From a virus, in the IMG/VR virus record IMGVR_UViG_3300033148_006102, positions 131,109 to 195,108 of that record: a stretch of DNA of 64,000 nucleotides, one strand, 5' to 3'. Positions 1,293-62,985 of this stretch are shown here, one piece after another. How positions within the stretch are numbered: position 1 is the stretch's first letter; the number at the start of each line of letters is the position of its first letter. The notes beneath the pieces were generated by a model. The model saw only the letters and a program-made list of their open reading frames with translations, ran no database searches and was not told the DNA's origin. A program made the position numbers and the translations under genes.

Positions 1293-2170
1293 GCGACGCG
1301 GCACTATCAGACTATATGAATACGAAAGTCGATGCTCCGACCGCTTTCGAAATTCCTCGTGAAAACGCACTTGAACGAACCACGATGCCAACCAATCAAC
1401 TGGTTGATGCTTTGCAGCGTAGGAAAGTTGTGAAAAAAGAAGCTGAAGAATTTGTGGGCAAGCTCAAAATTGGTGAGTTCATTGAGTATAATCTGGGATT
1501 ATCCCATAGTCCCACAAAAATAGCGTACATGCCTGCTTTGATGCCGGATATCGGCGGCGCGCTCGGCGGCGCGCTCGGAAAAGCTTGGGGCGGTATTAAA
1601 CGCTTGTTTGTTGAGCCAGGCTCATCTGCACCGTCAGCTTTGACTGGAAAAGGCGTGCAGCGATTAGTTAGTAATCCCGCAACACGACAGATGATACAAG
1701 CCGGCATTCGAAAAGGTACACAACAACATTTTCAGAGCGGGATACAGCAGCAGCAACAAATAACACCACGGCAGCAGCGACAGATTCAGCGCCGCTACCG
1801 TCAGTTAGCTGCTCGTCGGAATGTGCGACCAGGTCAAGGCCAACAGCAACCTCCTGCACAGCAGGCACAGCAGGCACAGCAGCCACCAGCCCAGCAACAA
1901 CCTCCCGCACAGCAACCCCAGCAGGCACAGCAGGCACAGCAAGCACCGACTAACCTTCAGACATTGCTGTCGGATCCGAATATCGGGAATTTTTTGCAGT
2001 CGACATCGGGCATGATTAACCGCCTATTCCCCGCACAGGGAACCGGCTGGAAAGGCATGCTAACACAGGTAGCTACGCCCATATTGATGAATATGTTGAT
2101 GCCGGCAAGAGGTGGCGGCGGTCCGCGGATGCCAGGATATAGTTACGGTGGAATTGGAGGCCGATATTGA
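1289..2170 (+). CDS. Gln/Pro-rich low-complexity protein with Gly-rich amphipathic segments
   Basis: QQPPAQQAQQAQ repeats encoded by cagcaggca tandem repeats at about 1850-1945. Confidence 0.7.
   Translation: MSDAALSDYMNTKVDAPTAFEIPRENALERTTMPTNQLVDALQRRKVVKKEAEEFVGKLKIGEFIEYNLGLSHSPTKIAYMPALMPDIGGALGGALGKAWGGIKRLFVEPGSSAPSALTGKGVQRLVSNPATRQMIQAGIRKGTQQHFQSGIQQQQQITPRQQRQIQRRYRQLAARRNVRPGQGQQQPPAQQAQQAQQPPAQQQPPAQQPQQAQQAQQAPTNLQTLLSDPNIGNFLQSTSGMINRLFPAQGTGWKGMLTQVATPILMNMLMPARGGGGPRMPGYSYGGIGGRY
1493..1515 (-). promoter_or_regulatory. 23-bp quasi-palindrome, copy 1 (intragenic)
   Basis: Minus strand reads GTGGGACTAT GGG ATAATCCCAG. Confidence 0.75.
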
Positions 2171-3711
2171 TCATCAAAACTGACATAGGCGGCTGCTGGG
2201 TAGACGGCGAACCTACCTATCTCGTGCTGGGCACGCGTCAGTTCGAGAAGATCGCGTCGTCGGAAATCTATATTCCAGCACGAATGAAATTAGCGGTTGA
2301 CGCGTATCAGCCAGATGATGATCACGCTGGCGTCATCATTCACGGTTTGGGTAGTTCTGAGTATTGGGGACAGAATCGAAACGGCGACTTGTTCCCGGAG
2401 CAATGGGAAAAGCAGGCCAATCTCATTAATGATGATCCGACGAAGATGTGGGGTTATCACACCTTTGAGAAGAACGCATTCCCATTCCGGAATCACAATA
2501 ACAAGGATCCAAAATTTGCGCTTGGTCCGAAGGTTGTGTGCGCAGCATGGAATCCGAAGATGCATCGTGTCGAGGTCCTCGCGAAGATTGCACGAGCAGT
2601 CGCGCCGGATATTGCAGATAAGATTGATGCTGATGAACCATTGATGTGGTCAATGGGCGCCAAGGTTCCATTCGATGTATGTACAGGTTGTGGTCATCGT
2701 GCGAAGACGGCTATGGAATATTGTGACTGTCTTCGCTTTAAGCGGGGTCAGATCACGCCGAAGGGTATCAAGATCGGCATGGAGAATCCGAAGCCGAATT
2801 TCTTCGATATTTCACAAGTAGGACGCGGCGCAGATATTTCCGCATATTCTTTGGCGAAGGTTGCTGGACTTGCTAACTGGAGTGATGCGACGTGTGATCA
2901 AAAGCCTCAGTTCAACGTGCCAGCAGAAAAAACTTCAGTACTTTTTTCTGACAAAATAGGTCAGCGTGATTCGACTGCTGCAATCGATAAGGAAATTCCG
3001 ATGACTTCCGGAGATGCGACACCAGAGGAGGCGATCGGTCCAGAAGACATCGATGAAGAAACACTCAACCCTTGCCAAGAAGCAGTAGCAAACACAATGC
3101 ATCGGGCGCCGGCGCAGGCCACCATCATGATTCGCATGCGTGGAGAAGGCGCAGAAAAAATTCTTCCGATGCTTGCGCAACTCGGAATTATTCCAACGCC
3201 TGGTGAGGTAAAAGCGGCTGGTTGGTGCGTCAAAGATGTGCCTGAGAAACTTGCATTTACCTCCGGACAGACTACACAGTTATATGACCTCGTAGCACTG
3301 ATTCCGCAAAGATCATTATTCGGACCAGTGTTGGGAGATCGGCTTCTCAAACAGGGATTATATGAGGGGCCGTGGCAGGATGGGAGTGATCCTGTCTACC
3401 GCGCAGTTGTCCAATGCTATATGAAGACGGCTGCGGACCCGAAAGCCCTGGGTGCATGGATCAGCACCATTAATCCCAAAGCGATTATGGCTCATATTGA
3501 CCATGATCGTGGAACGGTCAAGGAGGCAGTTAGCTCGAATACGGCCGTTAAACTGATGTTAGTCCCGATGATCCTTGGTGGGATTTATTCTCACAAGGAA
3601 GCACAGGGTGAAAAGCTTAGCGGTATGGAGAGATTTATTGCTACGAATCCTTTGGCCGCTGGAATGTCGTTGAATTACCTGGCAATGAAATTGTTAGGTA
3701 GGAAAAAGTAG
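2167..3711 (+). CDS. Putative prohead (capsid maturation) protease with Zn-ribbon insertion
   Basis: Position upstream of scaffold-like genes and MCP; motifs NRNGDLF, HNNKD, WSMG, CTGCG...CDC and FFDISQVGRGAD resemble HK97/assemblin-type prohead proteases. Confidence 0.55.
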   Translation: MIIKTDIGGCWVDGEPTYLVLGTRQFEKIASSEIYIPARMKLAVDAYQPDDDHAGVIIHGLGSSEYWGQNRNGDLFPEQWEKQANLINDDPTKMWGYHTFEKNAFPFRNHNNKDPKFALGPKVVCAAWNPKMHRVEVLAKIARAVAPDIADKIDADEPLMWSMGAKVPFDVCTGCGHRAKTAMEYCDCLRFKRGQITPKGIKIGMENPKPNFFDISQVGRGADISAYSLAKVAGLANWSDATCDQKPQFNVPAEKTSVLFSDKIGQRDSTAAIDKEIPMTSGDATPEEAIGPEDIDEETLNPCQEAVANTMHRAPAQATIMIRMRGEGAEKILPMLAQLGIIPTPGEVKAAGWCVKDVPEKLAFTSGQTTQLYDLVALIPQRSLFGPVLGDRLLKQGLYEGPWQDGSDPVYRAVVQCYMKTAADPKALGAWISTINPKAIMAHIDHDRGTVKEAVSSNTAVKLMLVPMILGGIYSHKEAQGEKLSGMERFIATNPLAAGMSLNYLAMKLLGRKK

Positions 3712-3758
3712 CAAGTTATTCGTGCCATGTGGCATAGTTTCAAGGAATCGGAGAAACA

Positions 3759-4262
3759 ATGAATCGAGAAGAGATCATTGCTGCGTTGAAGGACGTCGTG
3801 GATGCCGAAAAGACGGCAGAGGATTCAACGCCCGCGAACGTTGAGCCGGAAAAAACTCCTGACGAGCAAAAAACTGCGGAAGAGCAGAAGACTGCCGAGC
3901 AGGAAAAGATTGCGGCGCAGGCCAAGGTCGCCGGTTATCTGGGTCGTCTTGTTGCCCAGTCTTTCGTCGCAGAGACCATCAAGCTTGCTCAGAAGCTTGG
4001 CGGATCCGGACAGAATGCTGTTGCCACACCAGGTGGTAAGGAGCATGAGGTAAAGGGAACGGGCGGCGCCGGTAGCCAGCTCGCTTCGCAGGCCGATGCT
4101 ATTGGCACGACCAAGAAGACCCCGCCGGATGAGGCCAACTCCAAGCATCTCAAAGAAGATGATGCGATGGCCGGACGCCCTGGCGCTGTCAACAAGTCTC
4201 AGAACACAGATTCTGAGAAGAGCGTTGGCGGTTCCAAGCTGAATCTCGGCTCCGCTGCATAG
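3759..4262 (+). CDS. Acidic scaffold/internal head protein
   Basis: EKTAE/QKTAE repeats; located between the protease and MCP. Confidence 0.55.
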   Translation: MNREEIIAALKDVVDAEKTAEDSTPANVEPEKTPDEQKTAEEQKTAEQEKIAAQAKVAGYLGRLVAQSFVAETIKLAQKLGGSGQNAVATPGGKEHEVKGTGGAGSQLASQADAIGTTKKTPPDEANSKHLKEDDAMAGRPGAVNKSQNTDSEKSVGGSKLNLGSAA

Positions 4263-4326
4263 CTAATCGTTTAACCACGATTACTTGTGCTTGGACAATA
4301 CTTGGCACGTCTACTTAAAAGGACGG

Positions 4327-4743
4327 ATGATGGATATTGCTGCGCTAGCGGAATTAGTCCAAAAGAAGCTTGCCAAAGGACAAGCTGGTGAAGATGTCGT
4401 TTATGAAAACGACACTTCAGTGGACGCTCAGGGAGTAGAGCACGAAGGTACGGTCTACGAAGTCAAGACCGCCCAAGAAAAGGTTCAGTCCACGCCGCTG
4501 AATACGGAACTCATTCAAGAGACCGTGAAGCAGGCTGCCCTGATTGGCGACAATTATATGGGCGAGGACAAGGATCTTTTCAAGGCTGCGGTTGACAGCA
4601 TTCTGATGATGAAATCCGCGGATGTTTCGATCTGTGAAGACAGTGATCTGGATACCGCGGAAGACATTATGAAGGCTGCTGGCTTGCTCGTTGATCGCAT
4701 CAACGCGCGCCGTCCGGTCGCGGAAGCTACTTCCGAGGAATAA
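4327..4743 (+). CDS. Acidic internal head protein (hypothetical)
   Basis: ATG at 4327 after AAAGGA; six K-x-A motifs. Confidence 0.6.
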   Translation: MMDIAALAELVQKKLAKGQAGEDVVYENDTSVDAQGVEHEGTVYEVKTAQEKVQSTPLNTELIQETVKQAALIGDNYMGEDKDLFKAAVDSILMMKSADVSICEDSDLDTAEDIMKAAGLLVDRINARRPVAEATSEE

Positions 4744-4796
4744 CGGGTAGGTCAATACCATAGGCCTACCTCACGAGACCCGTGAGGAGAAACACT

Positions 4797-7637: not shown

Positions 7638-8363
7638 ATGTGTGAAGAGCTTTGGAAAGTTGTAGCTGGGTTTGAGGGTATGTATGAAGTGTCATCTCAT
7701 GGCCGAATTCGAAGTTTGCAGCAAAAGGATCAAAAAGGAAATCCTATCTTTCGGATAATGAAGTGGCGTTTTAGTCGTGGATACCCACGCGTACATTTCA
7801 CGAAGAAGGGTAAGAGCACGCAACATTGTATACATGTGTTGGTTTTGGAAGCGTTTGTAGGTCCGCGACCAGAAGGCATGCTAGGTTGCCACAATGATGG
7901 TGATAGGGCATATAACCATCCTCATAATCTTCGTTGGGATACTCATGAAGCAAATATGAAAGATTTGCAGAAGCATGGGTCGCTGGCAGGTGATCGTAAT
8001 CCATATTCAAAATTAACGGAAGACAATGTGCATGCGATCAGAAAGATGATTGCGGAAGGCATGGTTTACGGCCAAATAGCTGAAAAGTTTGATGTGTGTC
8101 GTGGAACAATTAAAGATATTGCTCGTAAACGATCTTGGTCACATTTGCCCGATGATAATGACTACGTTGATCGTGTTGAGAATGAACGCAAGAAACGACG
8201 TGGTGCAAATGTGGCGCGGGCCATTCTTACCGAAGAGGATATTCCTGTGATTCGGCAATTGATTGCTGATGGTATGTTGCAAAAGGACGTGGCCAAAAAA
8301 TATGGTGTGTCGCCGATTACAATCTCAGCCATCAACACAGGTCGCTTGTGGTCGCATGTCTAG
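7638..8363 (+). CDS. NUMOD4-HNH homing endonuclease with two C-terminal HTH repeats
   Basis: WKVVAGFEGMYEVSSHGRIRS (NUMOD4); H-N-D-G...N...NLRW (HNH_3); duplicated KLTE..V..IR...G....IA..F.V...TI..I...W.H module; more AT-rich than its flanks. Confidence 0.88.
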   Translation: MCEELWKVVAGFEGMYEVSSHGRIRSLQQKDQKGNPIFRIMKWRFSRGYPRVHFTKKGKSTQHCIHVLVLEAFVGPRPEGMLGCHNDGDRAYNHPHNLRWDTHEANMKDLQKHGSLAGDRNPYSKLTEDNVHAIRKMIAEGMVYGQIAEKFDVCRGTIKDIARKRSWSHLPDDNDYVDRVENERKKRRGANVARAILTEEDIPVIRQLIADGMLQKDVAKKYGVSPITISAINTGRLWSHV

Positions 8364-10671: not shown

Positions 10672-11205
10672 ATGAGCGACCATGATCCTGCCACTGAGGC
10701 ACTGTTAGCTGATTTGCAGCACATCAACGAAACGCCTGCAATCAAGCTGGCTGAAGAAGTTGGTGCGCCTACAATCGGTATGGAGGCAGCCGATTATTTG
10801 GCCAACTCCATTGATGAGGATGCGAACCAAGTCAAGCAGGCAAATGATCTGCGTGAGGGCATCATTGACGACGAAACCCTGAAGCTCGCTGCGGAAAAAG
10901 CAGCTGAGGATAAAGGGGAAGACGATGATGAAGGGGAAGAGAAGGGCAAGAAAGCTCCTCCTTTCGGCAAGCAGCACGGAAAAGGCAAAGGCAAAGGTGA
11001 CTGCAAGATGGCGGAAGAAGAGGATCTTCCGTGGGGCAAAGAAGCGGCCGATTTGCCGCCGGCTCTCGATCTGGAATTCTGGACGCAGACTGGTCCAGAA
11101 GAGGTCACAACCAAGTTTGCCGAGGGCTTCATGGAAGAGCTGCAGTCCCACGGCGATGAGTTCGGCAAGGCCTATGACGATATCCTAGCCGTAGCAGTTC
11201 GGTAA
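10672..11205 (+). CDS. Acidic protein rich in K-x-A motifs (internal/scaffold-like)
   Basis: Eight K-x-A motifs in 177 aa; GGAG SD. Confidence 0.65.
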   Translation: MSDHDPATEALLADLQHINETPAIKLAEEVGAPTIGMEAADYLANSIDEDANQVKQANDLREGIIDDETLKLAAEKAAEDKGEDDDEGEEKGKKAPPFGKQHGKGKGKGDCKMAEEEDLPWGKEAADLPPALDLEFWTQTGPEEVTTKFAEGFMEELQSHGDEFGKAYDDILAVAVR

Positions 11206-11216: not shown

Positions 11217-11239
11217 CTGGTGTTATGCCATAATCCCAG
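11217..11239 (+). promoter_or_regulatory. 23-bp quasi-palindrome, copy 2 (intergenic)
   Basis: CTGGTGTTAT GCC ATAATCCCAG, ending 8 nt before the ATG at 11248. Confidence 0.8.
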
Positions 11240-11922: not shown

Positions 11923-12621
11923 ATGGCCAATGACCCAGTTGCGTACCAAGAGCAGCTCATTGGGCAGGTTGGACTTGATGAGGATCTGCTCAACAATGAG
12001 ATGTTGAGGCCGCTGGCTTTTGCCCGCCGCTTAATTGTCGACGGGATTAAGGGTATGTTTTCCCAAGAATGGTGGGGACCAAATAATACTTGCCGTAATC
12101 CCTTTATCTTCAAATCCAAGGACGGCGATAATGCACCAGATAGCCTGCTACATATTCACGTGGAGCAGGCTGAAGAACAGACGCTCGAAGATGGCCGGTA
12201 TTACATTATCGTGGCAAGCGGACCGACGGCGTTTGAACGTACAGCTATCGGTAATTTCGCTGGTAATATGATCGCAACACCAAGTGATCGTGGCGACTAC
12301 ACCGCTATGGTCAGTTCGTCGGTGAACATCACGTGTAAGGCAAAGAAGTGGCCGAAGGCAGAATTGCTTGCGCAGTACGTGGCGCTATTTCTATTGTTCT
12401 TCCAACCAATTCTTCGTCACCGGAGTGCCGCCTTCTCTGTTGGGAATCCGACGGTTTCTGCTAAACAGATAAGTGACGATACCGGGTCACAGTCACAGCG
12501 AAATGACTATGTTGTTAGCATGCCAGTGTCAATGTCTTTGACGTGGACCCTAGCAGACGAAAACATGGACTTGTTGAGGAAAATCGCTACTCAAGAGGGC
12601 TTTCCTCCAAATTGCGTATAA
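11923..12621 (+). CDS. Putative tail terminator/completion protein
   Basis: Immediately upstream of the sheath; beta-rich; call rests on synteny. Confidence 0.45.
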   Translation: MANDPVAYQEQLIGQVGLDEDLLNNEMLRPLAFARRLIVDGIKGMFSQEWWGPNNTCRNPFIFKSKDGDNAPDSLLHIHVEQAEEQTLEDGRYYIIVASGPTAFERTAIGNFAGNMIATPSDRGDYTAMVSSSVNITCKAKKWPKAELLAQYVALFLLFFQPILRHRSAAFSVGNPTVSAKQISDDTGSQSQRNDYVVSMPVSMSLTWTLADENMDLLRKIATQEGFPPNCV

Positions 12622-12630
12622 GGTGAGAAC

Positions 12631-15462
12631 ATGGCAAATCCCGGAGCTATTCGTCGTCCATTTGTTGACGTGTATCAGATCTACCGGCAGTCGACACCGA
12701 TCCTGCCACGTGTGGATCTGCCTGTTGTTGTGATCGGTTTGTGCCGGCAGGTTGTGTACGAAGAAAGCGCGGGTTCGCATGCGCTGGGTTCGACAACTGT
12801 GCTAAATATTCCAGGCATCACAACCTACAGTGCGTCCATAGTTGACGTGGCCGCGATTGGTGGCGAGTACGTTGCACAGAATTCGGACGGTTCGCGCGAT
12901 AGTGTGTCTTCGCCAGCGCTTCCACAACTGTTCTTTGTCGATCCTACATACGGCCGTTATACACTTCAGAGTACAGACTTTACCGTTAACGCGTCGGCTG
13001 GAACTGTTACGATCGCATCGGGATTGAATCCTGTTTACGATATTTTGACGGGCACACGTGGCGCGTACAGTGCAGAAGGCGTGTCTCCAGCCGTAGGCGC
13101 CCAACGCGTCTTTACGGACACCAATGTTCCGTCCACCTACGGCGATTTTGTTACAGCTGGTGTGGCGGCAGGTGACCAGATCGTCCTGGCTGATGGCAAT
13201 ACTTTTGATGTGGTATCAGTCGTAAATGATTTCACACTGATTGTCACGGATGGCGCTGGTTCTACCTTAACACCGACCAGTACTGGCACGAATCAATCTT
13301 ACACGGTTCGTAAGACCATGACGTCAGGCTCAGGTACGATTCTGATGTCTTACGCCGCGAATCGTAGCGACTACGCGAACCAGTTGCTCGAGCTCACCAA
13401 CCAGAACGAAGTCTTTGATGTGCTGGGACCATCTATTCCGCTGAATCCATTGGCGATGGCGGTAGATTTGGTGATGCGCAATTCACAAACGCGTGTATTC
13501 GCGTTGATGCTATCAAGTGACGATCTTACAGGTCACTTGGCTGCGTTGGATGTGTTAACGAATAGTCGTGATGTTTACGGTCTAGTTCCACTGACTGAGG
13601 ATCAGACTATTTTGGCGGAATACTTGACGCATGTTCTCGCCATGTCGGACCCGATTAAGGCACGTGAACGCGTGTTATGGCGTACCGCATACATGGTTGT
13701 TCAGGCGACACGTGACGCCGCTGAATCTTTCCATTCAGTCGCTGTAACCGGCGTCGACAACGAGACTGTTACATTCTCCGTTACGCCGGGTAATTCGAAC
13801 ATCCAGAATTTCGGCGTTGTTGTGGGCGATGTACTGACAGATAACGAAACTGGTGGTACTGGGCGTATTTTGGCTGTTACGCCAGCGGGCGCAGCAGTCG
13901 ATGATGACTGCGTGCTTACAATAGCAGTACCAAACACCATTCCTGACAATGCTGTTGCCGCGACCGGCGCTTTCACATGCCAAGATGGCGACAAATTTAA
14001 CGATGGTGATTACCTTGAGCTGATCGATGGTGAAGGTACCACAAAGCGTTTTGAGTTCGACAAAACCGGACTTAACACGCCTGGTGCCGGTAACATCGAA
14101 ATCGATATTTCAACGGCGGCTACTTCAGCCGCGGCAAATGACGGCGATTTCACCTGCGACGTGAAAGCAAACTTTGCTAACAATGAATGGGTGCGCATAG
14201 AAGACGTACTGGGTAACCAATCAACGTATGAAGTCAAGAAGGACGGTACGTTTGTACAGAGCGTGTCCGGCAGCATTGTTGTCGATATTTCGGGTGTCGG
14301 CGTTGTGTCCGGTGCAGATGTCGCGGATGAATTCCGTACGGCTATTACCAACGACACCACGATAAATATCACGCCAAGTGGTGCGACAGCTGTTGTGGCG
14401 ATGGCGCAGGATGGCGAAAGCACGGACGGCAATACAACGGTAACGCTCGGTGGCACACCAACCGGTCTATTAGGTAAGACCGATTTTTCGAATGGTGCCG
14501 ACGGTACTGCTGCAGAGATTGTTCCGATCGTGAATGCGGCCATCATCGCGACTGGCATCAAGATCACGACGGACATCACTGGTACGCCGATTAACGCGTT
14601 GACCCAGCAGATCTTGGGCGCGGCTGGTAACACAGCTTCACCGACGTACACACCATTTGCGTCTGGTACTGGTATCACAGCCATCACGACCTTCTCCGGT
14701 GGCACTGGCTCGAACTGGGTTGATTGGATTATCCAGAGTCAGGCGTTGACCACTGATCAACAGGCCATAGCAATTGCGCAGCACACAGATGATATGGACT
14801 GCATGCGCGTGCGGAACCTGTGGCCGGATGACATGGATATGGTCTTCGGTGATACGTCTGCGGGTATTACAGCACAGTCAGGTGCCGGCTTCTGGGGCGG
14901 CGATGATGTTATCTGGCTGAACGCCGGTGGTTATTGGGGTTGCCTGATGGAGGCTGCGAAGCGTGCTCGGATTCGTCCGGGTCTGCCGCTTACCGGTCAG
15001 CCAGGCGCAGGTATCTTCCGTCTCCGCGGCGTTGAAGATAGGTTTACGCGCGACCAGCTTGATCGCATTGTATCTACTGGTACGTACTTGCTTGAGCAGC
15101 CTACGGGCGAAGGTGGCGCAGTATCAGCTGTTATCGCGACTACGTCCGATGACAGTGATTTGAGTGTGGCCTACGAGATGGGTATCTCGCAGGTTGACTT
15201 GTATACCAAACTGTTGCGCCGTACGGTACGGCCGCTGTTTGGACGGCACGCGCTGGACTCCAACTTCTTGGCGGTTCTTGGAGCCAAGGCTGAGGCAGTT
15301 GGTAATCTAATGACGCGTCCGGAAGCACAGAACGCAGAATCAGTCAGCATTCGTTCACTGACACGTGATCCGAACAATCGTGATCAGATCATCATGGATG
15401 TGAACTTTGTGCAGCTATCGGCGGCGAATGGCGGGGTCGTACGGATCTACGTCACAGCATAA
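12631..15462 (+). CDS. Tail sheath protein with large inserted domains
   Basis: 943 aa, Thr/Gly/Val-rich; sheath-like core (NPLAMAV, YGLVPLT, RER; C-terminal FTRDQLD...QVD...FGR); followed by a tube-sized gene. Confidence 0.72.
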   Translation: MANPGAIRRPFVDVYQIYRQSTPILPRVDLPVVVIGLCRQVVYEESAGSHALGSTTVLNIPGITTYSASIVDVAAIGGEYVAQNSDGSRDSVSSPALPQLFFVDPTYGRYTLQSTDFTVNASAGTVTIASGLNPVYDILTGTRGAYSAEGVSPAVGAQRVFTDTNVPSTYGDFVTAGVAAGDQIVLADGNTFDVVSVVNDFTLIVTDGAGSTLTPTSTGTNQSYTVRKTMTSGSGTILMSYAANRSDYANQLLELTNQNEVFDVLGPSIPLNPLAMAVDLVMRNSQTRVFALMLSSDDLTGHLAALDVLTNSRDVYGLVPLTEDQTILAEYLTHVLAMSDPIKARERVLWRTAYMVVQATRDAAESFHSVAVTGVDNETVTFSVTPGNSNIQNFGVVVGDVLTDNETGGTGRILAVTPAGAAVDDDCVLTIAVPNTIPDNAVAATGAFTCQDGDKFNDGDYLELIDGEGTTKRFEFDKTGLNTPGAGNIEIDISTAATSAAANDGDFTCDVKANFANNEWVRIEDVLGNQSTYEVKKDGTFVQSVSGSIVVDISGVGVVSGADVADEFRTAITNDTTINITPSGATAVVAMAQDGESTDGNTTVTLGGTPTGLLGKTDFSNGADGTAAEIVPIVNAAIIATGIKITTDITGTPINALTQQILGAAGNTASPTYTPFASGTGITAITTFSGGTGSNWVDWIIQSQALTTDQQAIAIAQHTDDMDCMRVRNLWPDDMDMVFGDTSAGITAQSGAGFWGGDDVIWLNAGGYWGCLMEAAKRARIRPGLPLTGQPGAGIFRLRGVEDRFTRDQLDRIVSTGTYLLEQPTGEGGAVSAVIATTSDDSDLSVAYEMGISQVDLYTKLLRRTVRPLFGRHALDSNFLAVLGAKAEAVGNLMTRPEAQNAESVSIRSLTRDPNNRDQIIMDVNFVQLSAANGGVVRIYVTA

Positions 15463-17034: not shown

Positions 17035-17511
17035 ATGACGCCGAAAGTAGCCGCTCGGTTGTACGACGCGGCTAGCATGTACAAAGATGTATCTCAAGCG
17101 CGTATCGTGCGCTGGCTGCTGTACGACTACATCAGAGATCCATTTCCTTTAAAGGTTGATCGATCCATTGAGCGTAGAGAGCTCACCTTTTTACTAGAAG
17201 CCGAACCATATCATAAGCTGCGCCAGATGAAGGCGGAGCACGGGAGCCTGCGGCATGTATATGGAGCTATCGTAGAAGCAGCGTACGATTGGCTATACGA
17301 TGTCGCTTGGATGGAACATGAAGATTATGTGACGCTGTGTAGGTTGAAGACTTATGACGATCCAGGATCTTTCACCGAGGGAACAGCAGATTTTCGCCGA
17401 AACACTGAAAGGGGCACGCTTCAAGTTCCCGGAAAGCGGCGAATTCAACTCGCATATTGGCCGTTTTCATTACGTCACCAACAAGGCCGAACAGCTACAG
17501 TTGTTTGGTAA
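17035..17511 (+). CDS. Putative tandem ribbon-helix-helix DNA-binding protein
   Basis: Two short strand-helix-helix-like segments; the start was chosen by eye. Confidence 0.35.
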   Translation: MTPKVAARLYDAASMYKDVSQARIVRWLLYDYIRDPFPLKVDRSIERRELTFLLEAEPYHKLRQMKAEHGSLRHVYGAIVEAAYDWLYDVAWMEHEDYVTLCRLKTYDDPGSFTEGTADFRRNTERGTLQVPGKRRIQLAYWPFSLRHQQGRTATVVW

Positions 17512-17800
17512 TAGCAACGCTTCGGATAAAACGGAGAAGTCAGAAACCTGGCGAATTCGTATCAGCGTGAATTATACGAAGCCAGCTTATTTCGAAGCCT
17601 TCCAACGTTGGGTCGTCGAATTTGTGCAAAAGCATTTTGACAAGATGCAGATCATTGGTAGGATCGTACACGAGACCGGAGAAGATCTCGGGATCAAACC
17701 GCAGGCGGATTTGCTTCTGGAGATGATTCCACCTCGTCAGGTCGATCTGGTCCGGGAAACATTGTTGCAAGGTATAATGGAGCATTTTGGAAAAGAATGA
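17354..17800 (+). CDS. Hypothetical protein (overlaps the previous ORF by about 158 nt)
   Basis: 148 aa; coupled to the sigma gene via ATGA. Confidence 0.6.
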   Translation: MTIQDLSPREQQIFAETLKGARFKFPESGEFNSHIGRFHYVTNKAEQLQLFGNSNASDKTEKSETWRIRISVNYTKPAYFEAFQRWVVEFVQKHFDKMQIIGRIVHETGEDLGIKPQADLLLEMIPPRQVDLVRETLLQGIMEHFGKE

Positions 17801-18573
17801 TTCAACCGGCTAGGCTGGAGCCTGACTCCCCACTAGCCCAATTCTTCAGGGATACGTCTGGCAGTGTAGTCCTGAATAAGACCGACGAGCGACATCTACT
17901 CTACTTAGCTCAAATCGGAGAATCCAAAGCTGCGCAAAAGCTGGCGTTTGCGAATTTGCGTCTGGTCATTACGATCGTTTCCGCGTTCTTCAAGAAGTAT
18001 CAGCCTCATCGTTCCAAGCCCGAATCACTGTTCCTTGACTGCGTAATGGCAGGTGTTGAGGGCGTTTACAAGGCCGCGGGTAAATTTGACATTACCAAGG
18101 GTACAAAGTTTTCTACCTACGTGGTATGGTGGATAAAACATTATGTGCGCAGTGAACTGGTGTTTGACCGCAATGCCACGCAGCCAATCCGGGTTTTGAC
18201 AGACATGTCAAAAATCCAGACAGCTATCGTGGACCACGATTCAGTACCAGATTTGGCGGATACCTACGTTGCGCGGGATTTGCCGGCGGAAGATGTCGAT
18301 TACGACACACCGAAGATAACTTGGGAAATGGTGGAATTACTCGAGACCTGTGAAGAGTTGAGCAGTAAGCACCGCAAGATCTTGACAGAACATTACGGCC
18401 TCTACAATGTGAATCCCAAGACCTACAAGGCATTAGCACAGGAAATGGGCCTCACTACCGAGCGCGTTCGTCAGCTCGAAAATGAGGCCCTTCGTATCCT
18501 GTACTTAAAGATGTCAAAGCCTGCGTTCAACCGGCTAGAGGACACGTTCGAAGAGCATGGGTGTCTGGTCTAG
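17797..18573 (+). CDS. Phage sigma70-family RNA polymerase sigma factor
   Basis: Region 2 (NLRLV...G..KA..KFD..KG.KFSTY..WWI) and region 4 HTH (TYKALAQEMGLTTERVRQLE..AL). Confidence 0.9.
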   Translation: MIQPARLEPDSPLAQFFRDTSGSVVLNKTDERHLLYLAQIGESKAAQKLAFANLRLVITIVSAFFKKYQPHRSKPESLFLDCVMAGVEGVYKAAGKFDITKGTKFSTYVVWWIKHYVRSELVFDRNATQPIRVLTDMSKIQTAIVDHDSVPDLADTYVARDLPAEDVDYDTPKITWEMVELLETCEELSSKHRKILTEHYGLYNVNPKTYKALAQEMGLTTERVRQLENEALRILYLKMSKPAFNRLEDTFEEHGCLV

Positions 18574-20297
18574 TCGTCATCAAAGAACGTGCTCAAGGCC
18601 ATGTTATGCGCGTAAGCGCCTTTACCTTCGACCTCTTTCAGCTTTTCAGTCAGTTCCGAACGAAGCGCTGTATCGCCGTCGTCGATCACTTCCTTTAGCT
18701 GAGACATCATATCATCGCTGTCCGCGTGTAACCTGTTGAGCTCGTCTTGGAGGATCTCAGGTAACTGTTCGACGCCTGCGTCACCGATCAATTCCTTACG
18801 GACAGTGGCCGGCAACTTCAACTCGTCATCCAGTTTGCGGATCTGATCAGCCATTTTCTTGAAAGTACGGCTTTGTTTGTCGTCTGGGACATCTTCGCCG
18901 CCTATGGCTTCACTCGGCTTTACTCGACCGTCATCACTTTTCTTGGCCTTGGCCTTGGATTTGGTCTTGGTCTTTTTGGCAACAGGCTTCTTCGGTTCGT
19001 CGTTCTGGGATTCTTCTATAGTCCCAGCTTTCGGATCCTTCGGATGTGTGATCAGGTTCTTACGATCGCCGAAGTACGCCTCCCACAGTGGAGAGAAGTC
19101 AACAGCTAATTCGTCCAGATCTTTTTGTGCACACTTTGCGAACTTGGCCGCGACCTTCTTATCCTGTGCGCAGATCATGCCTCCGCCCTTGATCTTGAAG
19201 ACCTTGACGCCCAAGGCTTGCTTCTCAGCTTCCTGTGCGTTCAGATCGTCAATTACGAGGACCTTGACCTGATGCCCCTTCTCAAACGCGTCGATGCCAA
19301 GCTTGAGGCTCGTGATCTTGGCGTCGCCTGGCGTACCGACACTGTAGGCGCTACCGTAGCGATAAAGCAGGTTTTCAAGACACGACTGTTTGTCATGCCA
19401 CTGCTGTAGTACGACGCCGGTCTTCACGATAGAGTTAAAGAGATCGGCTGCAGTCTTGTTCAGCTTGAACTTGAAATCGACTTCGAGCTCGTCTTCGTCG
19501 GTACCCTTCTTGCTGTCCTTTTCCGCCTTGCCTTTTTGCTCATTACGCAATTCGTCGATTATTTGATCATAGGCGAGTGGTTTGGTGTTCTCCGGATTCA
19601 GATGCGGTAGCAGCTTATCAGTGAACTCGGTACCATTCATGATGCCGTCTTGCTGTGTCTGTGTCTTCAAAAGGCGCACAGCGGAGAGAAGACGATTGAC
19701 AGCAGCGCCGGACAATAACGACAAGTCAACTTTGGATTCGATGAGCGTGCTTACACATCCCACGTAAAGCTTGAATACGCGGATTTTGTAATTGAGCTCA
19801 TTGATGACCATGTTTTCAGTCCATGGCTCTTCCTGGCCGGCGGAATAGTGCGCAATATGGTCCGGCATGGTGCGGGAGAGCTGAAAGGCACGAATCATGG
19901 TTTCCAAGCTGACGCTGTCGCGTTGCTTGAGCAAGGTTTCACTGCGCTGACGTAACCGAGCGGGAGTCAGATTCAGTCGGGTACCCTGGAAAGGCTCTTT
20001 ATCACCAAAGAGTTTGAGCAGGTCGATTTCGTGCTCAGGTATGACGGTTGCCGCAGCCTTAATAGCTTTGGAACCTGCTTTGCTTTTGTACTGTTTCTTG
20101 CCCGTTTTGATGTCGATGATGTTACTGGGCTGACCATTGTCGGAAGCTTTGGTGCGCTTGACAACTTTCTTGCTTGTTTTCTTACTGGCCTTTTTACCAG
20201 TTTTCTTCGACGTCTTCTTTGCTGTTTTCTTAGCTGTTTTCTTCGACGTCTTCCTCTTCGACGTTTTCTTCGACGTCTTCTTCACGGTACGTGCCAT
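18570..20297 (-). CDS. Large protein with a histone H1-like Lys-rich N-terminus
   Basis: KKTS/KKTA repeats over the first ~45 aa; the body was not recognised. Confidence 0.75.
   Translation of the reverse strand: MARTVKKTSKKTSKRKTSKKTAKKTAKKTSKKTGKKASKKTSKKVVKRTKASDNGQPSNIIDIKTGKKQYKSKAGSKAIKAAATVIPEHEIDLLKLFGDKEPFQGTRLNLTPARLRQRSETLLKQRDSVSLETMIRAFQLSRTMPDHIAHYSAGQEEPWTENMVINELNYKIRVFKLYVGCVSTLIESKVDLSLLSGAAVNRLLSAVRLLKTQTQQDGIMNGTEFTDKLLPHLNPENTKPLAYDQIIDELRNEQKGKAEKDSKKGTDEDELEVDFKFKLNKTAADLFNSIVKTGVVLQQWHDKQSCLENLLYRYGSAYSVGTPGDAKITSLKLGIDAFEKGHQVKVLVIDDLNAQEAEKQALGVKVFKIKGGGMICAQDKKVAAKFAKCAQKDLDELAVDFSPLWEAYFGDRKNLITHPKDPKAGTIEESQNDEPKKPVAKKTKTKSKAKAKKSDDGRVKPSEAIGGEDVPDDKQSRTFKKMADQIRKLDDELKLPATVRKELIGDAGVEQLPEILQDELNRLHADSDDMMSQLKEVIDDGDTALRSELTEKLKEVEGKGAYAHNMALSTFFDDD
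19005..19027 (-). promoter_or_regulatory. 23-bp quasi-palindrome, copy 3 (intragenic)
   Basis: Minus strand reads CTGGGACTAT AGA AGAATCCCAG. Confidence 0.7.
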
Positions 20298-20300
20298 CAA

Positions 20301-21206
20301 TTACTCCTTTTCCACACGTTTGACGCGAGACTTGTTGATGGAAAAACATTGGTCGACATGGATGCACGTTTTCGCGAGCATCGATGTTTGACTAGTACAA
20401 GCCTTCGATAACGGCTTGATCGAATTATTCTTGGCCGCAGTTTCCACAGCTGCCAAGCTTTGATATACCCAAGTCCATACATTGGGATCATACGGAACTA
20501 GGAATCCGCCGCCAGCGATTTTTGCTTGTTCTGGGTCGGCATAACACACGATAGCCTGCTTAATTCCGAGCAAGTGCATGTAGATGTTTACTTGAATGTA
20601 GTGAGGTCGAGCGACGTTGCGGATGCTTTCGAAGTTGAAGTTTCCCTTGCTCTTAACTTCAATTACGTACCACTCACCTTGATAGAAGAATACACCGTCG
20701 ACAGAGCCGACAAGGATACCAGTGATATCTGGGAACGAGTAGTGAACCTTGAGTTCGATATACTCGTAATGCTTGTTACCGCATACGCATTTGCCTGGAA
20801 AGGCGCTGAAGCGGTAAATACGGTTGCAGTGTTTGCAGCGCCAATCTCCGAAAAAAGCTCCAGAATAGCCCAGCCATTTTTGGATCATGGCATGGACCGT
20901 GTGACCACGATCGAAGAGACGCTGCGCTGCAGCCGGTACAGGCACAGGCATTTTACGTATGCCCTTTTTGATAGCCTGCAGGTCGTAGAAGCGACGCATA
21001 GGACACCAGTACGCCATTTCTGTGACGTGCAGCTCACTGTGATCCCCGCGGTCAGAGCCTACCTCTCGGTTACGTGTTTGGATGCATTTGTTAAGGACTT
21101 TATTCATGTCAAACGGCAAGGTGCGTCGTTTGACATCAGGGAGTCCACGATCCAGTGACACGTTTTTGAGGGCGCCTACCGCGTCGGCTACTGTCAGTAT
21201 GCTCAT
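20301..21206 (-). CDS. Cas4-like PD-(D/E)xK exonuclease with a Cys cluster
   Basis: CP...; RGHTVH; GSVDG; IEVKS; QVNIYM; C-terminal C......C..C. Confidence 0.8.
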   Translation of the reverse strand: MSILTVADAVGALKNVSLDRGLPDVKRRTLPFDMNKVLNKCIQTRNREVGSDRGDHSELHVTEMAYWCPMRRFYDLQAIKKGIRKMPVPVPAAAQRLFDRGHTVHAMIQKWLGYSGAFFGDWRCKHCNRIYRFSAFPGKCVCGNKHYEYIELKVHYSFPDITGILVGSVDGVFFYQGEWYVIEVKSKGNFNFESIRNVARPHYIQVNIYMHLLGIKQAIVCYADPEQAKIAGGGFLVPYDPNVWTWVYQSLAAVETAAKNNSIKPLSKACTSQTSMLAKTCIHVDQCFSINKSRVKRVEKE

Positions 21207-29223: not shown

Positions 29224-30282
29224 CTATTCCTTGTACAGCTCACGGTTGAAGTCACGTAGATGCTTCAGGTTGTGCTGTACAGACTGAATGCCCCGTTTGG
29301 GTGCTGTGTGCATCAATGTCAGCAGCTCGTCTAGAGTCATTGTTTTTGGATCCTTTGGCGCCACGGTTGAACGCACGTCGGGATGTGAGTAGTCCAGACG
29401 GCGTTTGGTCTTTGCAGCACCAATCCAACCGGGTGAATCGTTGTCTCCAAGAATGTAGATCGTCGGCGGCTGCGTATGCAGAATCTTGTTAATGTGAAAT
29501 ACACTGGACAGGTTCGATCTTTGCACGGCTGCCAAATTGTAGCCCTCCTTGATTAGACCAACGGTGGCTGCGTGCAGGACATCCAGCATGCCCTCAAAAA
29601 TCACCATCGGTAAGCCCGTGGCCCAGCGCGTTTCCCCATAGACGAATTTGTCGGCCTCGAATTTGAAGACCGCAAAATATTTTGAGCGCTGGTTGGGTAA
29701 AGGGATTGGTCGCCGTGCCCATGCACCGACGACAGCAGTATCTTCTGAACCTGGGATTATGCCATAAACCGGGAAAACGACGATTCCGTCGCTTCCTCCG
29801 CATAGGCCCCATTCTTTTGCTACTTCAGCCGAACATCCTTTTTCCTGCAACCACACCAGCTGGTCATCATCCAACGCATGTGCGGTTAGCATGAGACGAT
29901 CGGTATAATCAACAGCGTTTATGATCTCTTGCTGTCGTTTGAAATGTACACGAGGTATGTAATCGCGGCCAGTATTACAGTTGGCTGTGGCGTCACGCTG
30001 TACTTCCGCGAGTAGTTGTGGCGAGATTTGGCCGTATTCGTCTAGCAGTCGGGCAAGCATTAGCAGTGAACCCCGAAAACCACAGGCGAAACAGATGCAG
30101 CCATGACCAGCTTGAAGGCGTACAGATAATGCAGGCGTTTCATCATATTGGTGCTTATGCCGGCCAGGTATAGCGGCAAGCGGGCAGTTCGTTGTGAGAA
30201 ATGCTCCGTCGGTGGGTTCACGCAATTGGAAGTCACGGGACCCCAATTGCCTGAATAGGCGTCGTAATTCGTACTCTGTCAT
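29224..30282 (-). CDS. dnaG: DNA primase (Zn finger + TOPRIM)
   Basis: CP...H...CFACG; IFEGMLD; GDNDSPG. Confidence 0.85.
   Translation of the reverse strand: MTEYELRRLFRQLGSRDFQLREPTDGAFLTTNCPLAAIPGRHKHQYDETPALSVRLQAGHGCICFACGFRGSLLMLARLLDEYGQISPQLLAEVQRDATANCNTGRDYIPRVHFKRQQEIINAVDYTDRLMLTAHALDDDQLVWLQEKGCSAEVAKEWGLCGGSDGIVVFPVYGIIPGSEDTAVVGAWARRPIPLPNQRSKYFAVFKFEADKFVYGETRWATGLPMVIFEGMLDVLHAATVGLIKEGYNLAAVQRSNLSSVFHINKILHTQPPTIYILGDNDSPGWIGAAKTKRRLDYSHPDVRSTVAPKDPKTMTLDELLTLMHTAPKRGIQSVQHNLKHLRDFNRELYKE
29751..29773 (-). promoter_or_regulatory. 23-bp quasi-palindrome, copy 4 (intragenic; left half degenerate)
   Basis: Minus strand reads CCCGGTTTAT GGC ATAATCCCAG. Confidence 0.65.
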
Positions 30283-37989: not shown

Positions 37990-38401
37990 TGTCCACCTTG
38001 TAGTGGTCAAGATTACGAATAATCGCATCCGTGGTTGGCCAAGTATTCGGACCACCAGTCAAATCATGCGGTCCATTACAGGTACGCACAAGTAAGGTAT
38101 ATTGATCGGGACCGGGGGAACAAGGTTCGCCAGCTTGAAACATCCAGTGATCGGTTTGTAGGATGGTTTCGCCAAGTACGGCGACTCCGCCACGACAAAT
38201 ATGAATCACATAGTCTTTGGGCACAAGACCCAGCTGTACCGCAAGTTCTTGCAAGAAATTTTTGGCGGCCTTATGGAATTGGTTTTTGAGTTCTTCCTCG
38301 TAAGGCTGCCATTTGTTGTATGCTTTGTTAAGCCGTGTGGCTAGTGTTTTCAGCTTTTTAATGTTCAGGTCAGTGCTCCTGGGAATGTGGTAAATTACCA
38401 C
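37976..38401 (-). CDS. Hypothetical protein (start uncertain, possibly non-AUG)
   Basis: AGGAG lies upstream of in-frame CTG/ATT; no ATG in the 5' part. Confidence 0.55.
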   Translation of the reverse strand: MVIYHIPRSTDLNIKKLKTLATRLNKAYNKWQPYEEELKNQFHKAAKNFLQELAVQLGLVPKDYVIHICRGGVAVLGETILQTDHWMFQAGEPCSPGPDQYTLLVRTCNGPHDLTGGPNTWPTTDAIIRNLDHYKVDNDNS

Positions 38402-43370: not shown

Positions 43371-43583
43371 CTACTTCAGCTTCTCCACATCGAACTCATT
43401 TTTGATGAATTTGGCCAGGAAGCTCCCGGCTGACGGTGCGGTCAACAACTTCTGATGCGTCTCTTCCGGGACACTCGCGTACTTGTAGTAACCGCCGTTC
43501 TTGAATCGAACAAAGAGGTCTTGTGTCTCTGGATCATAGCCGACTTCGGCGATGTTCGAGGACACAACTGGTACCATGTCCAT
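43371..43583 (-). CDS. KTSC domain protein
   Basis: V.SSNI..VGYD......L.V.F.NG..Y.Y..VP......L..A.S.G.F. Confidence 0.9.
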   Translation of the reverse strand: MDMVPVVSSNIAEVGYDPETQDLFVRFKNGGYYKYASVPEETHQKLLTAPSAGSFLAKFIKNEFDVEKLK

Positions 43584-43595: not shown

Positions 43596-43618
43596 TTGGT
43601 ACTATGGGATAATCCCAG
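43596..43618 (+). promoter_or_regulatory. 23-bp quasi-palindrome, copy 6 (intergenic)
   Basis: TTGGTACTAT GGG ATAATCCCAG, abutting the SD of the KTSC gene. Confidence 0.8.
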
Positions 43619-50280: not shown

Positions 50281-50744
50281 CAAGCAAAAATCTCCTCTGG
50301 GTCGGACCATGGCGCGAAATCATCATCCGGCACGCCCATCTTTTCGCATGCAGTATGAAAGACCTGCCAGTATTTACGGGCCGCATCCAGCATTTCTTCG
50401 TCAACATCACCAGAAGGCGTAACATGGATAGCTGGTTGACCTTCTTGGTAGAATTGAATTGTCGGGCATTCCTCGAGTGATTCGCCATCGTACGCGAAGA
50501 CATGAGGGTCATAATCGCAGCCTTCAGAATGACGACCAACGAAGATGACACCTGCGTTGGTGAGGTTGTTTATGACATCGCCTGATCCGTTAACTTCGGC
50601 GAAGCCCAAACTGATATACTGTAATTCGTGTTTTGCGACCTTGACTAATTCGTGTTCTTCGTCGAAATCGCCAAACACGATATTTTCTACGATTTTGCGT
50701 TGTGCTCTAGGACATGTAATCCAGATATAGCAGCGATCACCCAT
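50280..50744 (-). CDS. Hypothetical protein
   Basis: TAATG and TGATG couplings. Confidence 0.68.
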   Translation of the reverse strand: MGDRCYIWITCPRAQRKIVENIVFGDFDEEHELVKVAKHELQYISLGFAEVNGSGDVINNLTNAGVIFVGRHSEGCDYDPHVFAYDGESLEECPTIQFYQEGQPAIHVTPSGDVDEEMLDAARKYWQVFHTACEKMGVPDDDFAPWSDPEEIFA

Positions 50745-51175
50745 TATTCGGCTTTCCAGACCTTTCCGTTGAGTTCCATTGTGTTCGCCGCGCTGGCTGG
50801 ATCAATGTGCTCATGATGTGCGACACTGCATATGCCTGGCTTGTCATCCTTTGGAGCGCACCAGCCTTCAACAGCGCAGTCATATTTGTCTTCCAGCATG
50901 CGCGCAACTTTCTTGAAGTCCTCTACGTCCGTGTAATACAGACAGGACACGGCCGCATACTTTTCTTTGAGTAGTTCGCCAAGATATGGAAGACCTTCTT
51001 CGTCGTCTTTCAGCTCAACGAGTTCATATTCATCGCCGATAGACGGCGAGCCATTGATTGATGTGTTTAAAGTACGCACTATGCCTTCTTTAACGTATTC
51101 GACCCAACCGGTCTCGTTCGGACCGTAGTAAACACGCAGGTGTTCACCGGGTTGATACTTTTCGCCTATTTGCAT
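50744..51175 (-). CDS. Hypothetical protein
   Basis: AAGGA SD. Confidence 0.68.
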   Translation of the reverse strand: MQIGEKYQPGEHLRVYYGPNETGWVEYVKEGIVRTLNTSINGSPSIGDEYELVELKDDEEGLPYLGELLKEKYAAVSCLYYTDVEDFKKVARMLEDKYDCAVEGWCAPKDDKPGICSVAHHEHIDPASAANTMELNGKVWKAE

Positions 51176-51184: not shown

Positions 51185-51207
51185 CTGGGATTATGTCAAA
51201 GTACCAG
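51185..51207 (-). promoter_or_regulatory. 23-bp quasi-palindrome, copy 7 (intergenic)
   Basis: Minus strand reads CTGGTACTTT GAC ATAATCCCAG, followed directly by AAGGAAAACATG. Confidence 0.82.
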
Positions 51208-51474
51208 TTAGACAACTTTCATATTGTCTATAGTGTTGCGGATCCAGTTACTAAGTATGCTGAGCTGCGAAGCCAGGTCGCGAGCATCTTCTGAATCCAA
51301 GTAGATATTGGGTTTCTCTTCTTCGAAATCATCGGCGAGCGAGATTTTCAGCGTATAGTCGTCTTGACCTTCCGCGTCACGTTCTTCGCGTTTTCGATGC
51401 GCTGTGAACACGAACGATCGTTTGAACATGACGGCTTGTGCAGAATGTTCGACGTACTTTTCAACAAGTGCCAT
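51208..51474 (-). CDS. Small hypothetical protein
   Basis: GGAG SD; TAATG coupling. Confidence 0.62.
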   Translation of the reverse strand: MALVEKYVEHSAQAVMFKRSFVFTAHRKREERDAEGQDDYTLKISLADDFEEEKPNIYLDSEDARDLASQLSILSNWIRNTIDNMKVV

Positions 51475-54700: not shown

Positions 54701-54738
54701 GCGGGGCACGAGTATATGCCCCGCCCACAGCAAGTCAA
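54701..54738 (-). promoter_or_regulatory. Sigma70-like promoter with the -10 box inside an 8-bp inverted repeat
   Basis: TTGACT (54738-54733), 16-nt spacer, TATACT (54716-54711); GCGGGGCA/TGCCCCGC arms at 54701-54708 and 54717-54724. Confidence 0.6.
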
Positions 54739-54747: not shown

Positions 54748-54770
54748 CTGGGATTATGCCGTAGTACCAG
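54748..54770 (-). promoter_or_regulatory. 23-bp quasi-palindrome, copy 8
   Basis: Minus strand reads CTGGTACTAC GGC ATAATCCCAG; overlaps a stop codon and lies 9 nt upstream of the -35 box. Confidence 0.82.
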
Positions 54771-55149
54771 AACGAGGCATCCAGCGTTCGCCGGTCTCGA
54801 GCACGTGCATCACACCGCCGCAGCGCAAGTCATTTATGATGTTGTAGGCATCAGATGGAGAATCTCCCCAGCTCAGGCCGCCGGCAAGAATAATCCATTC
54901 ACCCTTATGTAAGATGTAGCCAACATCGCGACGATCTAGGTAGCCATCTTCAAGTTCGTCGAGGCGTTCCCGCATATGATCACGGAATTCTTCGAGATCG
55001 TTAAAGATACGTTGTTCATCGTCCTCGAGTGTGAGCTCGTCTTCAATGAACTTCTTGGCTGCGTCCCAGTGTAGTGGTTCAAGACTGGGAGTGTGTTTGT
55101 CTTCTATTGCGGGAACGACAAATACGTCGTAGATAAAATCAGACCCCAC
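54754..55149 (-). CDS. Hypothetical protein
   Basis: AAGG SD. Confidence 0.68.
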   Translation of the reverse strand: MGSDFIYDVFVVPAIEDKHTPSLEPLHWDAAKKFIEDELTLEDDEQRIFNDLEEFRDHMRERLDELEDGYLDRRDVGYILHKGEWIILAGGLSWGDSPSDAYNIINDLRCGGVMHVLETGERWMPRSGTTA

Positions 55150-62541: not shown

Positions 62542-62559
62542 AGATCTCCTTTCTAATAC

Positions 62560-62596
62560 AAAAAACCGCAAGGCACATAAAATCCCTGCGGTTTTT
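62560..62596 (-). terminator. Intrinsic (possibly bidirectional) terminator
   Basis: AAAAACCGCA...TGCGGTTTTT. Confidence 0.7.
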
Positions 62597-62622
62597 GGTA
62601 AGTTATTCAAATGGAAGCGCTG

Positions 62623-62826
62623 TCAGGCTGCCATCTGTTTGTCGATTGTCATGTTACTCTTCGCAAGCTCGATCTCTCTGAGCACATCGCCCATCTCATT
62701 CATCAATCTCGTCATTTCTTGGACCTTTACTGGGTCCGTTTCGACGAAATCCTTGAATGCGATCTCGATTTGCGCGTCAAGGAGATCGTGTCTTGCCTCG
62801 AGTGTTTGAAGTGTACTGTTCGACAT
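62623..62826 (-). CDS. Small coiled-coil protein
   Basis: AGGAGGT SD before the ATG at 62826. Confidence 0.7.
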   Translation of the reverse strand: MSNSTLQTLEARHDLLDAQIEIAFKDFVETDPVKVQEMTRLMNEMGDVLREIELAKSNMTIDKQMAA

Positions 62827-62962
62827 GGTACACCTCCTTCCTCTGTACATATGATACCCCTAAATGGGGATAAATTGCACAAGTTTTTGCCTACCTTTAC
62901 AGGTAGAACGTTCCTCTTACAGTCTTATGCCATAAATTCCGAGGATTTTGGCAGGTGCTAAT

Positions 62963-62985
62963 CTGGGACTATCGTATAATCCCAG
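62963..62985 (+). promoter_or_regulatory. 23-bp quasi-palindrome, copy 9 (intergenic; near-perfect palindrome)
   Basis: CTGGGACTAT CGT ATAATCCCAG. Confidence 0.82.

Follow-up and report, generated by a model that had tools for sequence, protein, structure and literature searches.

What reads a short palindrome that returns every few kilobases along an entire phage chromosome, between genes and inside them alike, and what might such reading achieve? The question is raised by the last 64 kb (bases 131,109-195,108; G000:131109-195108) of a 195,108-bp phage record in IMG/VR, IMGVR_UViG_3300033148_006102, which carries a 114-bp terminal repeat and is referred to here as G000, the 64,000 nucleotides analysed in detail being called the window. 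An earlier note on this DNA had listed nine copies of a 23-bp quasi-palindrome, present in both orientations and, where the half-site is exact, accompanied by a partial inverted half, and had proposed that a dimeric phage protein binds this dispersed array, in a manner that no ordinary operator regulon would explain. All nine copies exist and the element is real; pooling both strands of all copies, however, reveals a true odd-length palindrome of 23 bp, CTGGGAYTATGSCATARTCCCAG, whose middle G/C is conserved within a symmetric G-S-C centre and which shows a weak A/T preference two bases outside, for a total of 23-27 bp. Since the symmetry of this odd-length element includes its centre, the orientation of individual copies has little meaning.

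The half-site ATAATCCCAG is exact in seven of the nine listed copies, and the excess over chance that had been claimed for it is confirmed against dinucleotide shuffles, in which up to one mismatch yields 2.6 matches as compared to 16 in the window; the 23-mer at up to three mismatches is found at 7 places in the window and at 0 in the shuffles. A weight-matrix scan of the whole of G000 shows that the 9 copies in the window belong to a genome-wide array of 27, of which 24 score >=20 and three are borderline; the next score below these is ~11 bits, and third-order Markov shuffles of the genome reach ~16. The borderline class includes the copy at window position 38379, which had been called degenerate and which does exist, but whose position weight matrix (PWM) score of 17-20 lies close to the best shuffled value of ~16. 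Nor does the enrichment vanish under a codon-aware background: synonymous-codon shuffles (n=200) yield 0.44 fully coding matches, whereas 7 are observed.

The array is also strikingly regular. The 23 sites of G000 that score >=24 are separated by gaps of 3.6-13.8 kb, with a coefficient of variation (CV) of 0.34 as compared to 0.94 under random placement, and none of 20,000 simulations was as even (P<5e-5). The fairly even spacing that the earlier note had read from the window, about one copy every 4-11 kb, is thus statistically solid over the whole genome, with a somewhat wider range of gaps. The same evenness is obtained when the null model is restricted to gene junctions, since drawing 17 sites from the 254 junctions of G000 gives a CV of 0.98 (P<5e-5 for the observed value), and it recurs in two relatives, G001 and G003, whose CVs of 0.46 and 0.49 stand beside the 0.34 of G000 against an expectation of ~0.95 (P<=1e-4 in all three genomes). 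At a mean density of ~1 palindrome per 8 kb, no part of G000 lies more than ~7 kb from a site.

The sites also have a marked preference for gene boundaries, as 17 of the 23 in G000 are intergenic or at gene ends although non-coding DNA makes up only ~8% of the genome, and the boundary share amounts to 55-85% in every array-bearing genome. Many sites start 0-4 nt after a stop codon and fill the entire gap before the next gene. The first 150 kb of G000 have their genes on the plus strand and the final 45 kb on the minus strand; by hand count, the central base of the palindrome matches the direction of the genes in 14 sites out of 22, that is, without orientation bias. Within the window, the copy at 11217..11239 (PWM 33.4) lies between genes, separated by 11 nt from the preceding stop of 10672-11205 (+) and by 8 nt from the following ATG at 11248, and that at 43596..43618 (PWM 30.8) fills the gap between 43371-43583 (-) and 43627-43902 (-). 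The copy at 51185..51207 (PWM 31.0) abuts the stop of 51208-51474 (-) and is followed by the Shine-Dalgarno sequence and start of 50744-51175 (-), while the borderline copy at 38379..38401 sits at the junction of 37976-38401 and 38370-38702 (-). Two further copies combine a stop codon on one side with a predicted promoter on the other: 54748..54770 (PWM 32.6) overlaps the stop of 54754-55149 (-), and 62963..62985 (PWM 34.0), an exact match to the pattern of the earlier note, abuts the stop of 62986-63273 (-).

Six to nine copies of G000 lie deep inside genes, where all three reading frames are used. In the window, the copy at 1493..1515 (PWM 33.8) is read in frame 0 as LGLSHSPT within 1289-2170 (+), the copy at 29751..29773, which has a weak left arm (PWM 26.3), lies within the coding sequence of a DnaG-type primase, 29224-30282 (-), and the copy at 19005..19027 (PWM 29.0) encodes the peptide GTIEESQ within a gene for a 576-aa protein that the earlier note had called H1-like, 18570-20300 (-). 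The same peptide is encoded by a palindrome in a gene for an unrelated protein of 695 aa (G000 18608-20695), and it is the sole stretch that the two products have in common. The use of all three frames, this shared peptide and the excess of coding matches together indicate that selection acts on the DNA.

A palindrome may nonetheless matter as a structure rather than as a sequence, either as an RNA hairpin (terminator, RNase processing site or stabilising element) or as a DNA hairpin or cruciform, for instance in priming or as an N4-like hairpin promoter. Arms of ten bases around a 3-nt spacer can certainly fold, the best-folding copy of the window reaching -13 kcal/mol (z = -4.4), and the position of most sites between genes would suit such a function. 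The arms nevertheless deviate independently of each other: among the 253 arm pairs of the 23 sites, 67 are changed in one arm only, as compared to 2 compensatory double changes, which leads us to conclude that each arm is read on its own as sequence, as a two-fold-symmetric protein would read it, and that the element is not a functional stem. For six window copies, the predicted folding energy of the RNA hairpin varies between -13 and -2 kcal/mol, two of the six being no better than shuffles, so that a conserved stem is rejected on both counts. An intrinsic terminator is likewise rejected, as stem stability is not conserved and no T-run was seen after the palindromes, whose flanks show an A/T bias only at +/-1-2; the true terminators of G001, in contrast, are GC-rich hairpins followed by T-runs. 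The supposed loop is itself symmetric and conserved, the pyrimidine-purine asymmetry at positions 7 and 17 (Y7/R17, G-U versus C-A in a stem) and the central base do not track the transcribed strand by hand count, and a structural function would not suit the copies deep within genes. We therefore consider nucleic-acid structures a very improbable explanation of the array.

Relatives of G000 offer an independent view of what is conserved. Megablast of a 20-kb stretch of G000 against deposited phage genomes gave no match and its DNA polymerase retrieved only distant bacterial Pol I (~30%); the major capsid protein, used as a probe, recovers the clade of G000 in IMG/VR. The G000 spelling is absent from the five nearest relatives at up to three mismatches, and elsewhere in IMG/VR it turned up on one contig, which has no similarity to G000. 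Four lineages of relatives instead carry sister palindromes, spelled differently in the same 23-bp frame, xTGG-N15-CCAx. G001, a 194-kb genome whose capsid protein is 63% identical, has 23 copies of TTGGTTGCATCSGATGCAACCAA; G002 and G005 share RTGGCTGCAGASTCTGCAGCCAY, with 7 copies in 76 kb and 3 in 35 kb, respectively; G003 has ~27 copies of GTGGCTCCGGTSACCGGAGCCAC in 134 kb; and G007 has ~9 copies of TTGGACCSG-N5-CSGGTCCAA in 125 kb. The outer positions T2G3G4 and C20C21A22 do not vary among the five spellings, and each of the four motifs that are fully spelled (G000, G001, G002/G005 and G003) has a G/C pair on the dyad axis. A shared core, TGG-N4-AT-N3-AT-N4-CCA, was found only in G001 among 22 relatives.

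The sites are not only respelled between lineages but also retained within them. Between G002 and G005, whose DNA is 76-80% identical, all three sites in the region of overlap are at orthologous places and keep ~21-22 of 23 bases (by eye from alignments) while their flanks have diverged, a pattern that on these alignments we take to be purifying selection. Moreover, G001 and G002 share three places in spite of their different spellings, namely after the g137 homologue, after the g183 homologue and inside g161 (P ~0.005), and G003 and G007 share two; G000 shares none with the relatives compared. Judged by these comparisons, the array appears to be ancestral in the phage clade, its density being kept while places turn over slowly and the spelling changes in place, and such respelling in place is as expected if the sites and a binding protein co-evolve. 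At some copies (G002 34918 and its counterpart G005 25285; G005 19892) the sister word opens with ATGG or closes with CCAT followed by G, and its ATG appears to initiate translation of the next gene (the homologue of g171), the first residues of whose product are then encoded by the site. Outside the phages, the G000 word has 24 matches in 185,579 bacterial and archaeal genomes (596 Gb), all of them single, as compared to ~35 expected by chance on our own arithmetic. Since the word is never repeated in a cellular genome, it does not belong to a host regulon, and it is simpler to suppose that the phage encodes the binder.

That all copies change spelling in concert between lineages, and that many of them stand directly after stop codons as if inserted, may also evoke the targets of a site-specific nuclease or nickase (T5-like programmed nicks, or breaks that start recombination-dependent replication), or else the footprints of a selfish mini-element spreading between genes. 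G000 does encode at least three HNH endonucleases, one PD-(D/E)XK nuclease and two Holliday-junction resolvases, and the G/C kept on the dyad in four spellings would suit chemistry at the centre. The HNH genes, however, look like free-standing homing endonucleases that are not conserved in the clade, the sites are devoid of target-site duplications or of conserved flanks beyond 2 nt, and neither the persistence of sites at orthologous places under selection nor their even spacing would be expected of a selfish element. Mobile palindromes of the REP/RAYT type were rejected because their Y1 (IS200-like) transposase partner was not found in five genomes, and recombination sites of the dif, lox or res kind because no tyrosine or serine recombinase was found in G000, G001, G003 or G007. 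A look-up of sequencing runs with a 9-kb stretch gave no entry. On balance, we judge nuclease targets or selfish elements to be distinctly unlikely.

A minority of the palindromes stand at promoters. One class of promoter in G000, TGCCAA-N17-GCATAAG(ACT RTGA), occurs in six perfect copies, at 40905(-), 43280(-), 65275(+), 78731(+), 111614(-) and 194061(-), the last of which (window 62925-62953, minus strand) heads the long minus-strand block of genes; its conserved stretch runs ~17 nt past the -10 element and is longer than the usual sigma-70 -10 region. The corresponding words of the relatives are GGCCTAAGA in G001 (26 copies, 23 of them on one strand) and GGCATAAGA in G003 (10 copies). Palindromes at G000 43267 and 65266 supply the -35 hexamer of predicted promoters, while exactly 9 nt separate the end of each of the window copies 62963 and 54748 from a downstream -35 hexamer, and this in two promoters (n=2) of different types: the former is of the phage class, whereas the latter is a sigma-70-like TTGACT-16-TATACT, 54711..54738 (-), which is a consensus match only and precedes a tRNA-shaped leader and initiator operon. 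In G001, the palindromes at 41963 and 162020 end 4 nt before a promoter word. Proximity within 100 nt of a palindrome holds for 3 of 9 promoters in G000 (P<0.001) and for 4 of 26 in G001 (P=0.002); ~85% of palindromes are far from any promoter word. G001 also contains repeated terminator-promoter cassettes, in which a GC-rich hairpin and T-run are followed within ~15 nt by GGCCTAAGA (e.g., 61521, 64836, 79258, 88746, 90609, 91179 and 93242).

One might then suppose that the palindromes are themselves promoters for a phage sigma factor or a phage RNA polymerase, with TG-N-CATAAT as an extended -10, an alternative that the earlier note had listed. The TGGCATAAT of the palindrome does resemble the G000 promoter word TGGCATAAG(ACT), and most of the clade retains a phage sigma factor, but the likeness is not repeated in G001 or G003, whose promoter words are unrelated to their palindromes, and the suggestion accordingly fails. 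Sigma factors do not read palindromes; a palindromic promoter would fire both ways, yet genes run one way for 150 kb; only 1-8 nt separate several sites from the next start codon; and there is no conserved -35 element 17 bp upstream of the -10-like CATAAT. We give this explanation hardly any credence.

A more serious contender is a purely transcriptional system in which a single repressor would silence early promoters from the operator-like copies and halt transcribing RNA polymerase at all the others, the even spacing being a by-product of one site per transcription unit. The model is provided by the stoperators of Cluster A mycobacteriophages such as L5 and Bxb1, asymmetric sites of 13 bp that follow the direction of transcription and to which the monomeric immunity repressor of these temperate phages binds (PMC6550527, PMC9283540). 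The 24-27 copies of G000 match the 20-30 dispersed stoperators per genome, some sites lie in promoters and most do not, the site word differs between related phages, as it does in Cluster A together with the repressor, and the strong preference for gene boundaries fits as well; on promoter predictions, a subset of the sites would be operators that overlap or adjoin promoters. The sites of G000 are, in contrast, palindromic and unoriented, the 26 promoter words and 23 palindromes of G001 are mostly separate, and the spacing is more even than gene junctions give by chance. Pfam and six-frame searches of G000 found no integrase, serine recombinase or recognisable repressor, and hence no sign of a lysogeny to maintain. 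A system restricted to transcription is in our opinion unlikely, albeit the strongest of the rivals considered here.

Our preferred reading is that the palindromes are docking sites for a dimeric, probably phage-encoded protein, serving it as operators near a handful of promoters and as anchors across the rest of the genome; we hold this to be the probable explanation, with moderate confidence. A two-fold-symmetric (dimeric or tetrameric), sequence-specific protein, most probably encoded by the phage, would dock with high affinity at the 23-bp palindromes, and the palindrome word and the specificity of the protein would have drifted together within the clade. Where a site overlaps a -35 hexamer and spacer or stops 9 nt short of a -35 hexamer, as a minority do, the protein would regulate the start of transcription; at the remaining majority it would find anchor, nucleation or roadblock points from which to act on the whole chromosome. 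The even spacing suggests that each palindrome serves a domain of limited reach. The sites, their symmetry, their spacing, the selection upon them, their co-evolving sister words and their overlap with some promoters are read from the sequences, whereas the binding, the phage origin of the protein and the outcome of binding are what we infer. The core proposal of the earlier note, namely a dimeric phage protein on a dispersed array that is no ordinary operator regulon, fits the independence of the arms, the dyad that includes the centre, the even spacing, the purifying selection and the co-evolving words, whereas the binders that it named find no support.

Several results weigh against the docking of such a protein, one of them being that no DNA-binding candidate for the palindrome emerged from searches with Pfam and PHROGs over ~220 proteins and with six-frame family searches. 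Among 201 proteins of 45-320 aa scanned with Pfam, only homing endonucleases and two sigma factors (window 17797-18573, with regions 2 and 4; G000 12361-13047, with region 3) had DNA-binding domains. Six-frame searches gave no match to ParB_N (PF02195) in G000-G004, control genomes being positive, none to tyrosine integrase (PF00589) or resolvase (PF00239) in G000, G001, G003 and G007, none to Y1 transposase (PF01797) in 5 genomes, none to RHH_1 in any genome searched and no clade-conserved match to HTH_7; HTH_3 and HTH_17 gave weak sub-threshold matches in G000 alone, inside open reading frames (ORFs) of homing endonucleases. Profile hidden Markov models did not reveal any protein family confined to array-bearing genomes, and no array was detected in G004, G006, G008 and G018, with the loosest screen too noisy to recover G007, the positive control. 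A site of 23-27 bp is, moreover, long for a plain dimer, and its best-conserved outer blocks are 16 bp apart and hence on opposite faces of the helix. The genome-wide role of the array, finally, is deduced from one kind of evidence, the spacing.

The individual candidates fared no better. Among those of the earlier note, the protein encoded by 17035-17511 and described as RHH-like gives no RHH signal, the sigma factor of 17797-18573 is real but occurs as well in G008, in which no array was detected, the H1-like protein matches no family and has only one weak relative (24% identity, in G004), and the HTH initiator has no homologue in array-bearing G001. A tblastn phylogenetic profile pointed to g001, g183 and g190, of which g183 turns out to be a PD-(D/E)XK nuclease and g190 the DnaG primase. 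Sequence searches of the PDB with three conserved proteins of no assigned function gave no match, and the genes downstream of palindrome-controlled promoters share no similarity between G000 and G001. The homing endonuclease with two HTH domains at window 7638-8363 was discarded as a mobile gene absent from G001-G003.

The foregoing leaves room, on a more tentative note, for a clade-wide chromosome-marking system, in which a protein of no recognisable family (by sequence neither ParB, HTH, RHH nor recombinase) would load at the 23-bp dyads and cover, loop or insulate the genome; spacing rather than position would be selected, and word and specificity would co-evolve in place. We regard this more specific scheme as possible but doubtful.

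As to other genes of G000, window 7638-8363 (+) is a free-standing HNH homing endonuclease (NUMOD4, HNH_3 and two HTH domains) that sits as an insertion immediately behind the major capsid gene, a place at which G001 lacks it. A 193-aa ORF at G000 78818-79399 (+), missed by the gene caller and located just upstream of a gene for a 531-aa protein, has an HNH motif and a C-terminal HTH and is probably another homing endonuclease. A recombination module spans 20301-21206 (-), 21208-21705 (-) and 21653-23023 (-) of the window and encodes a PD-(D/E)XK (Cas4/RecB-like) nuclease, a Holliday-junction resolvase (phrog_2002) and a RecA-like protein. The first 78 kb of G000 contain a RusA-family resolvase together with small genes (<=320 aa) for two Tad2-like (Thoeris anti-defence) domains, a Dam-type methyltransferase, a dCMP deaminase, ThyX, MazG and a PAPS-reductase-like protein.

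Dispersed phage palindromes have been on record since at least 2015 without explanation, and our literature search found no paper on such arrays in large phages. New here are the finding that sister words are spelled within one frame, the evidence for conserved and for shared places, a spacing test restricted to gene junctions, the overlaps with promoters and the exclusion of named binders. This clade offers unusually good handles, i.e. a long specific word, even spacing, five spellings in a fixed frame with TGG/CCA ends and places that are kept under respelling, which in combination allow a direct test of which protein tells the cognate from the sister word. Should the binder prove to represent a new family, it would be a phage counterpart to ParB/KorB, Noc, MatP and SlmA, and the palindrome-protein pairs could serve as an orthogonal set of proteins and sites.

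In ParB-parS, Noc-NBS, MatP-matS and SlmA-SBS, dispersed palindromic sites are loaded by a dimeric protein that acts at a distance. KorB of plasmid RK2, which slides up to 1.5 kb and silences, resembles the present case in that its OB palindromes are dispersed over the replicon, some beside promoters and some far from them, and that a dimeric protein loads there and acts at a distance. Sites of this KorB/ParB type are, however, of 12-16 bp as compared to 23-27 bp here, G000-G004 do not encode the ParB N-terminal (CTPase) domain, and no partner such as KorA or ParA is seen.

The closest published case is that of the Cluster O mycobacteriophages (Corndog and relatives), which carry ~34 copies of a 17-bp dyad repeat, TGTTCGGNNNCCGAACA, with a 3-bp centre of no meaningful orientation; ~40% of the copies are intergenic and ~30% clearly intragenic, few are near promoters, the repeat is absent from the host genome, and its discoverers infer a dimeric binding protein and deem a transcriptional role unlikely (PMC4351075). 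The two arrays differ in the length of the element (17 bp as compared to 23-27 bp), in the word itself (TGTTCGG-N3-CCGAACA), in density (~1 per 2 kb as compared to 1 per 8 kb) and in phage group and host, which are unrelated; even spacing and respelling between lineages are not reported for Cluster O because its five genomes are too close to one another. What they have in common is one short palindrome dispersed through a phage genome in tens of copies, with a similar split between sites that lie between genes and sites that lie inside them, unoriented and not repeated in cellular genomes.

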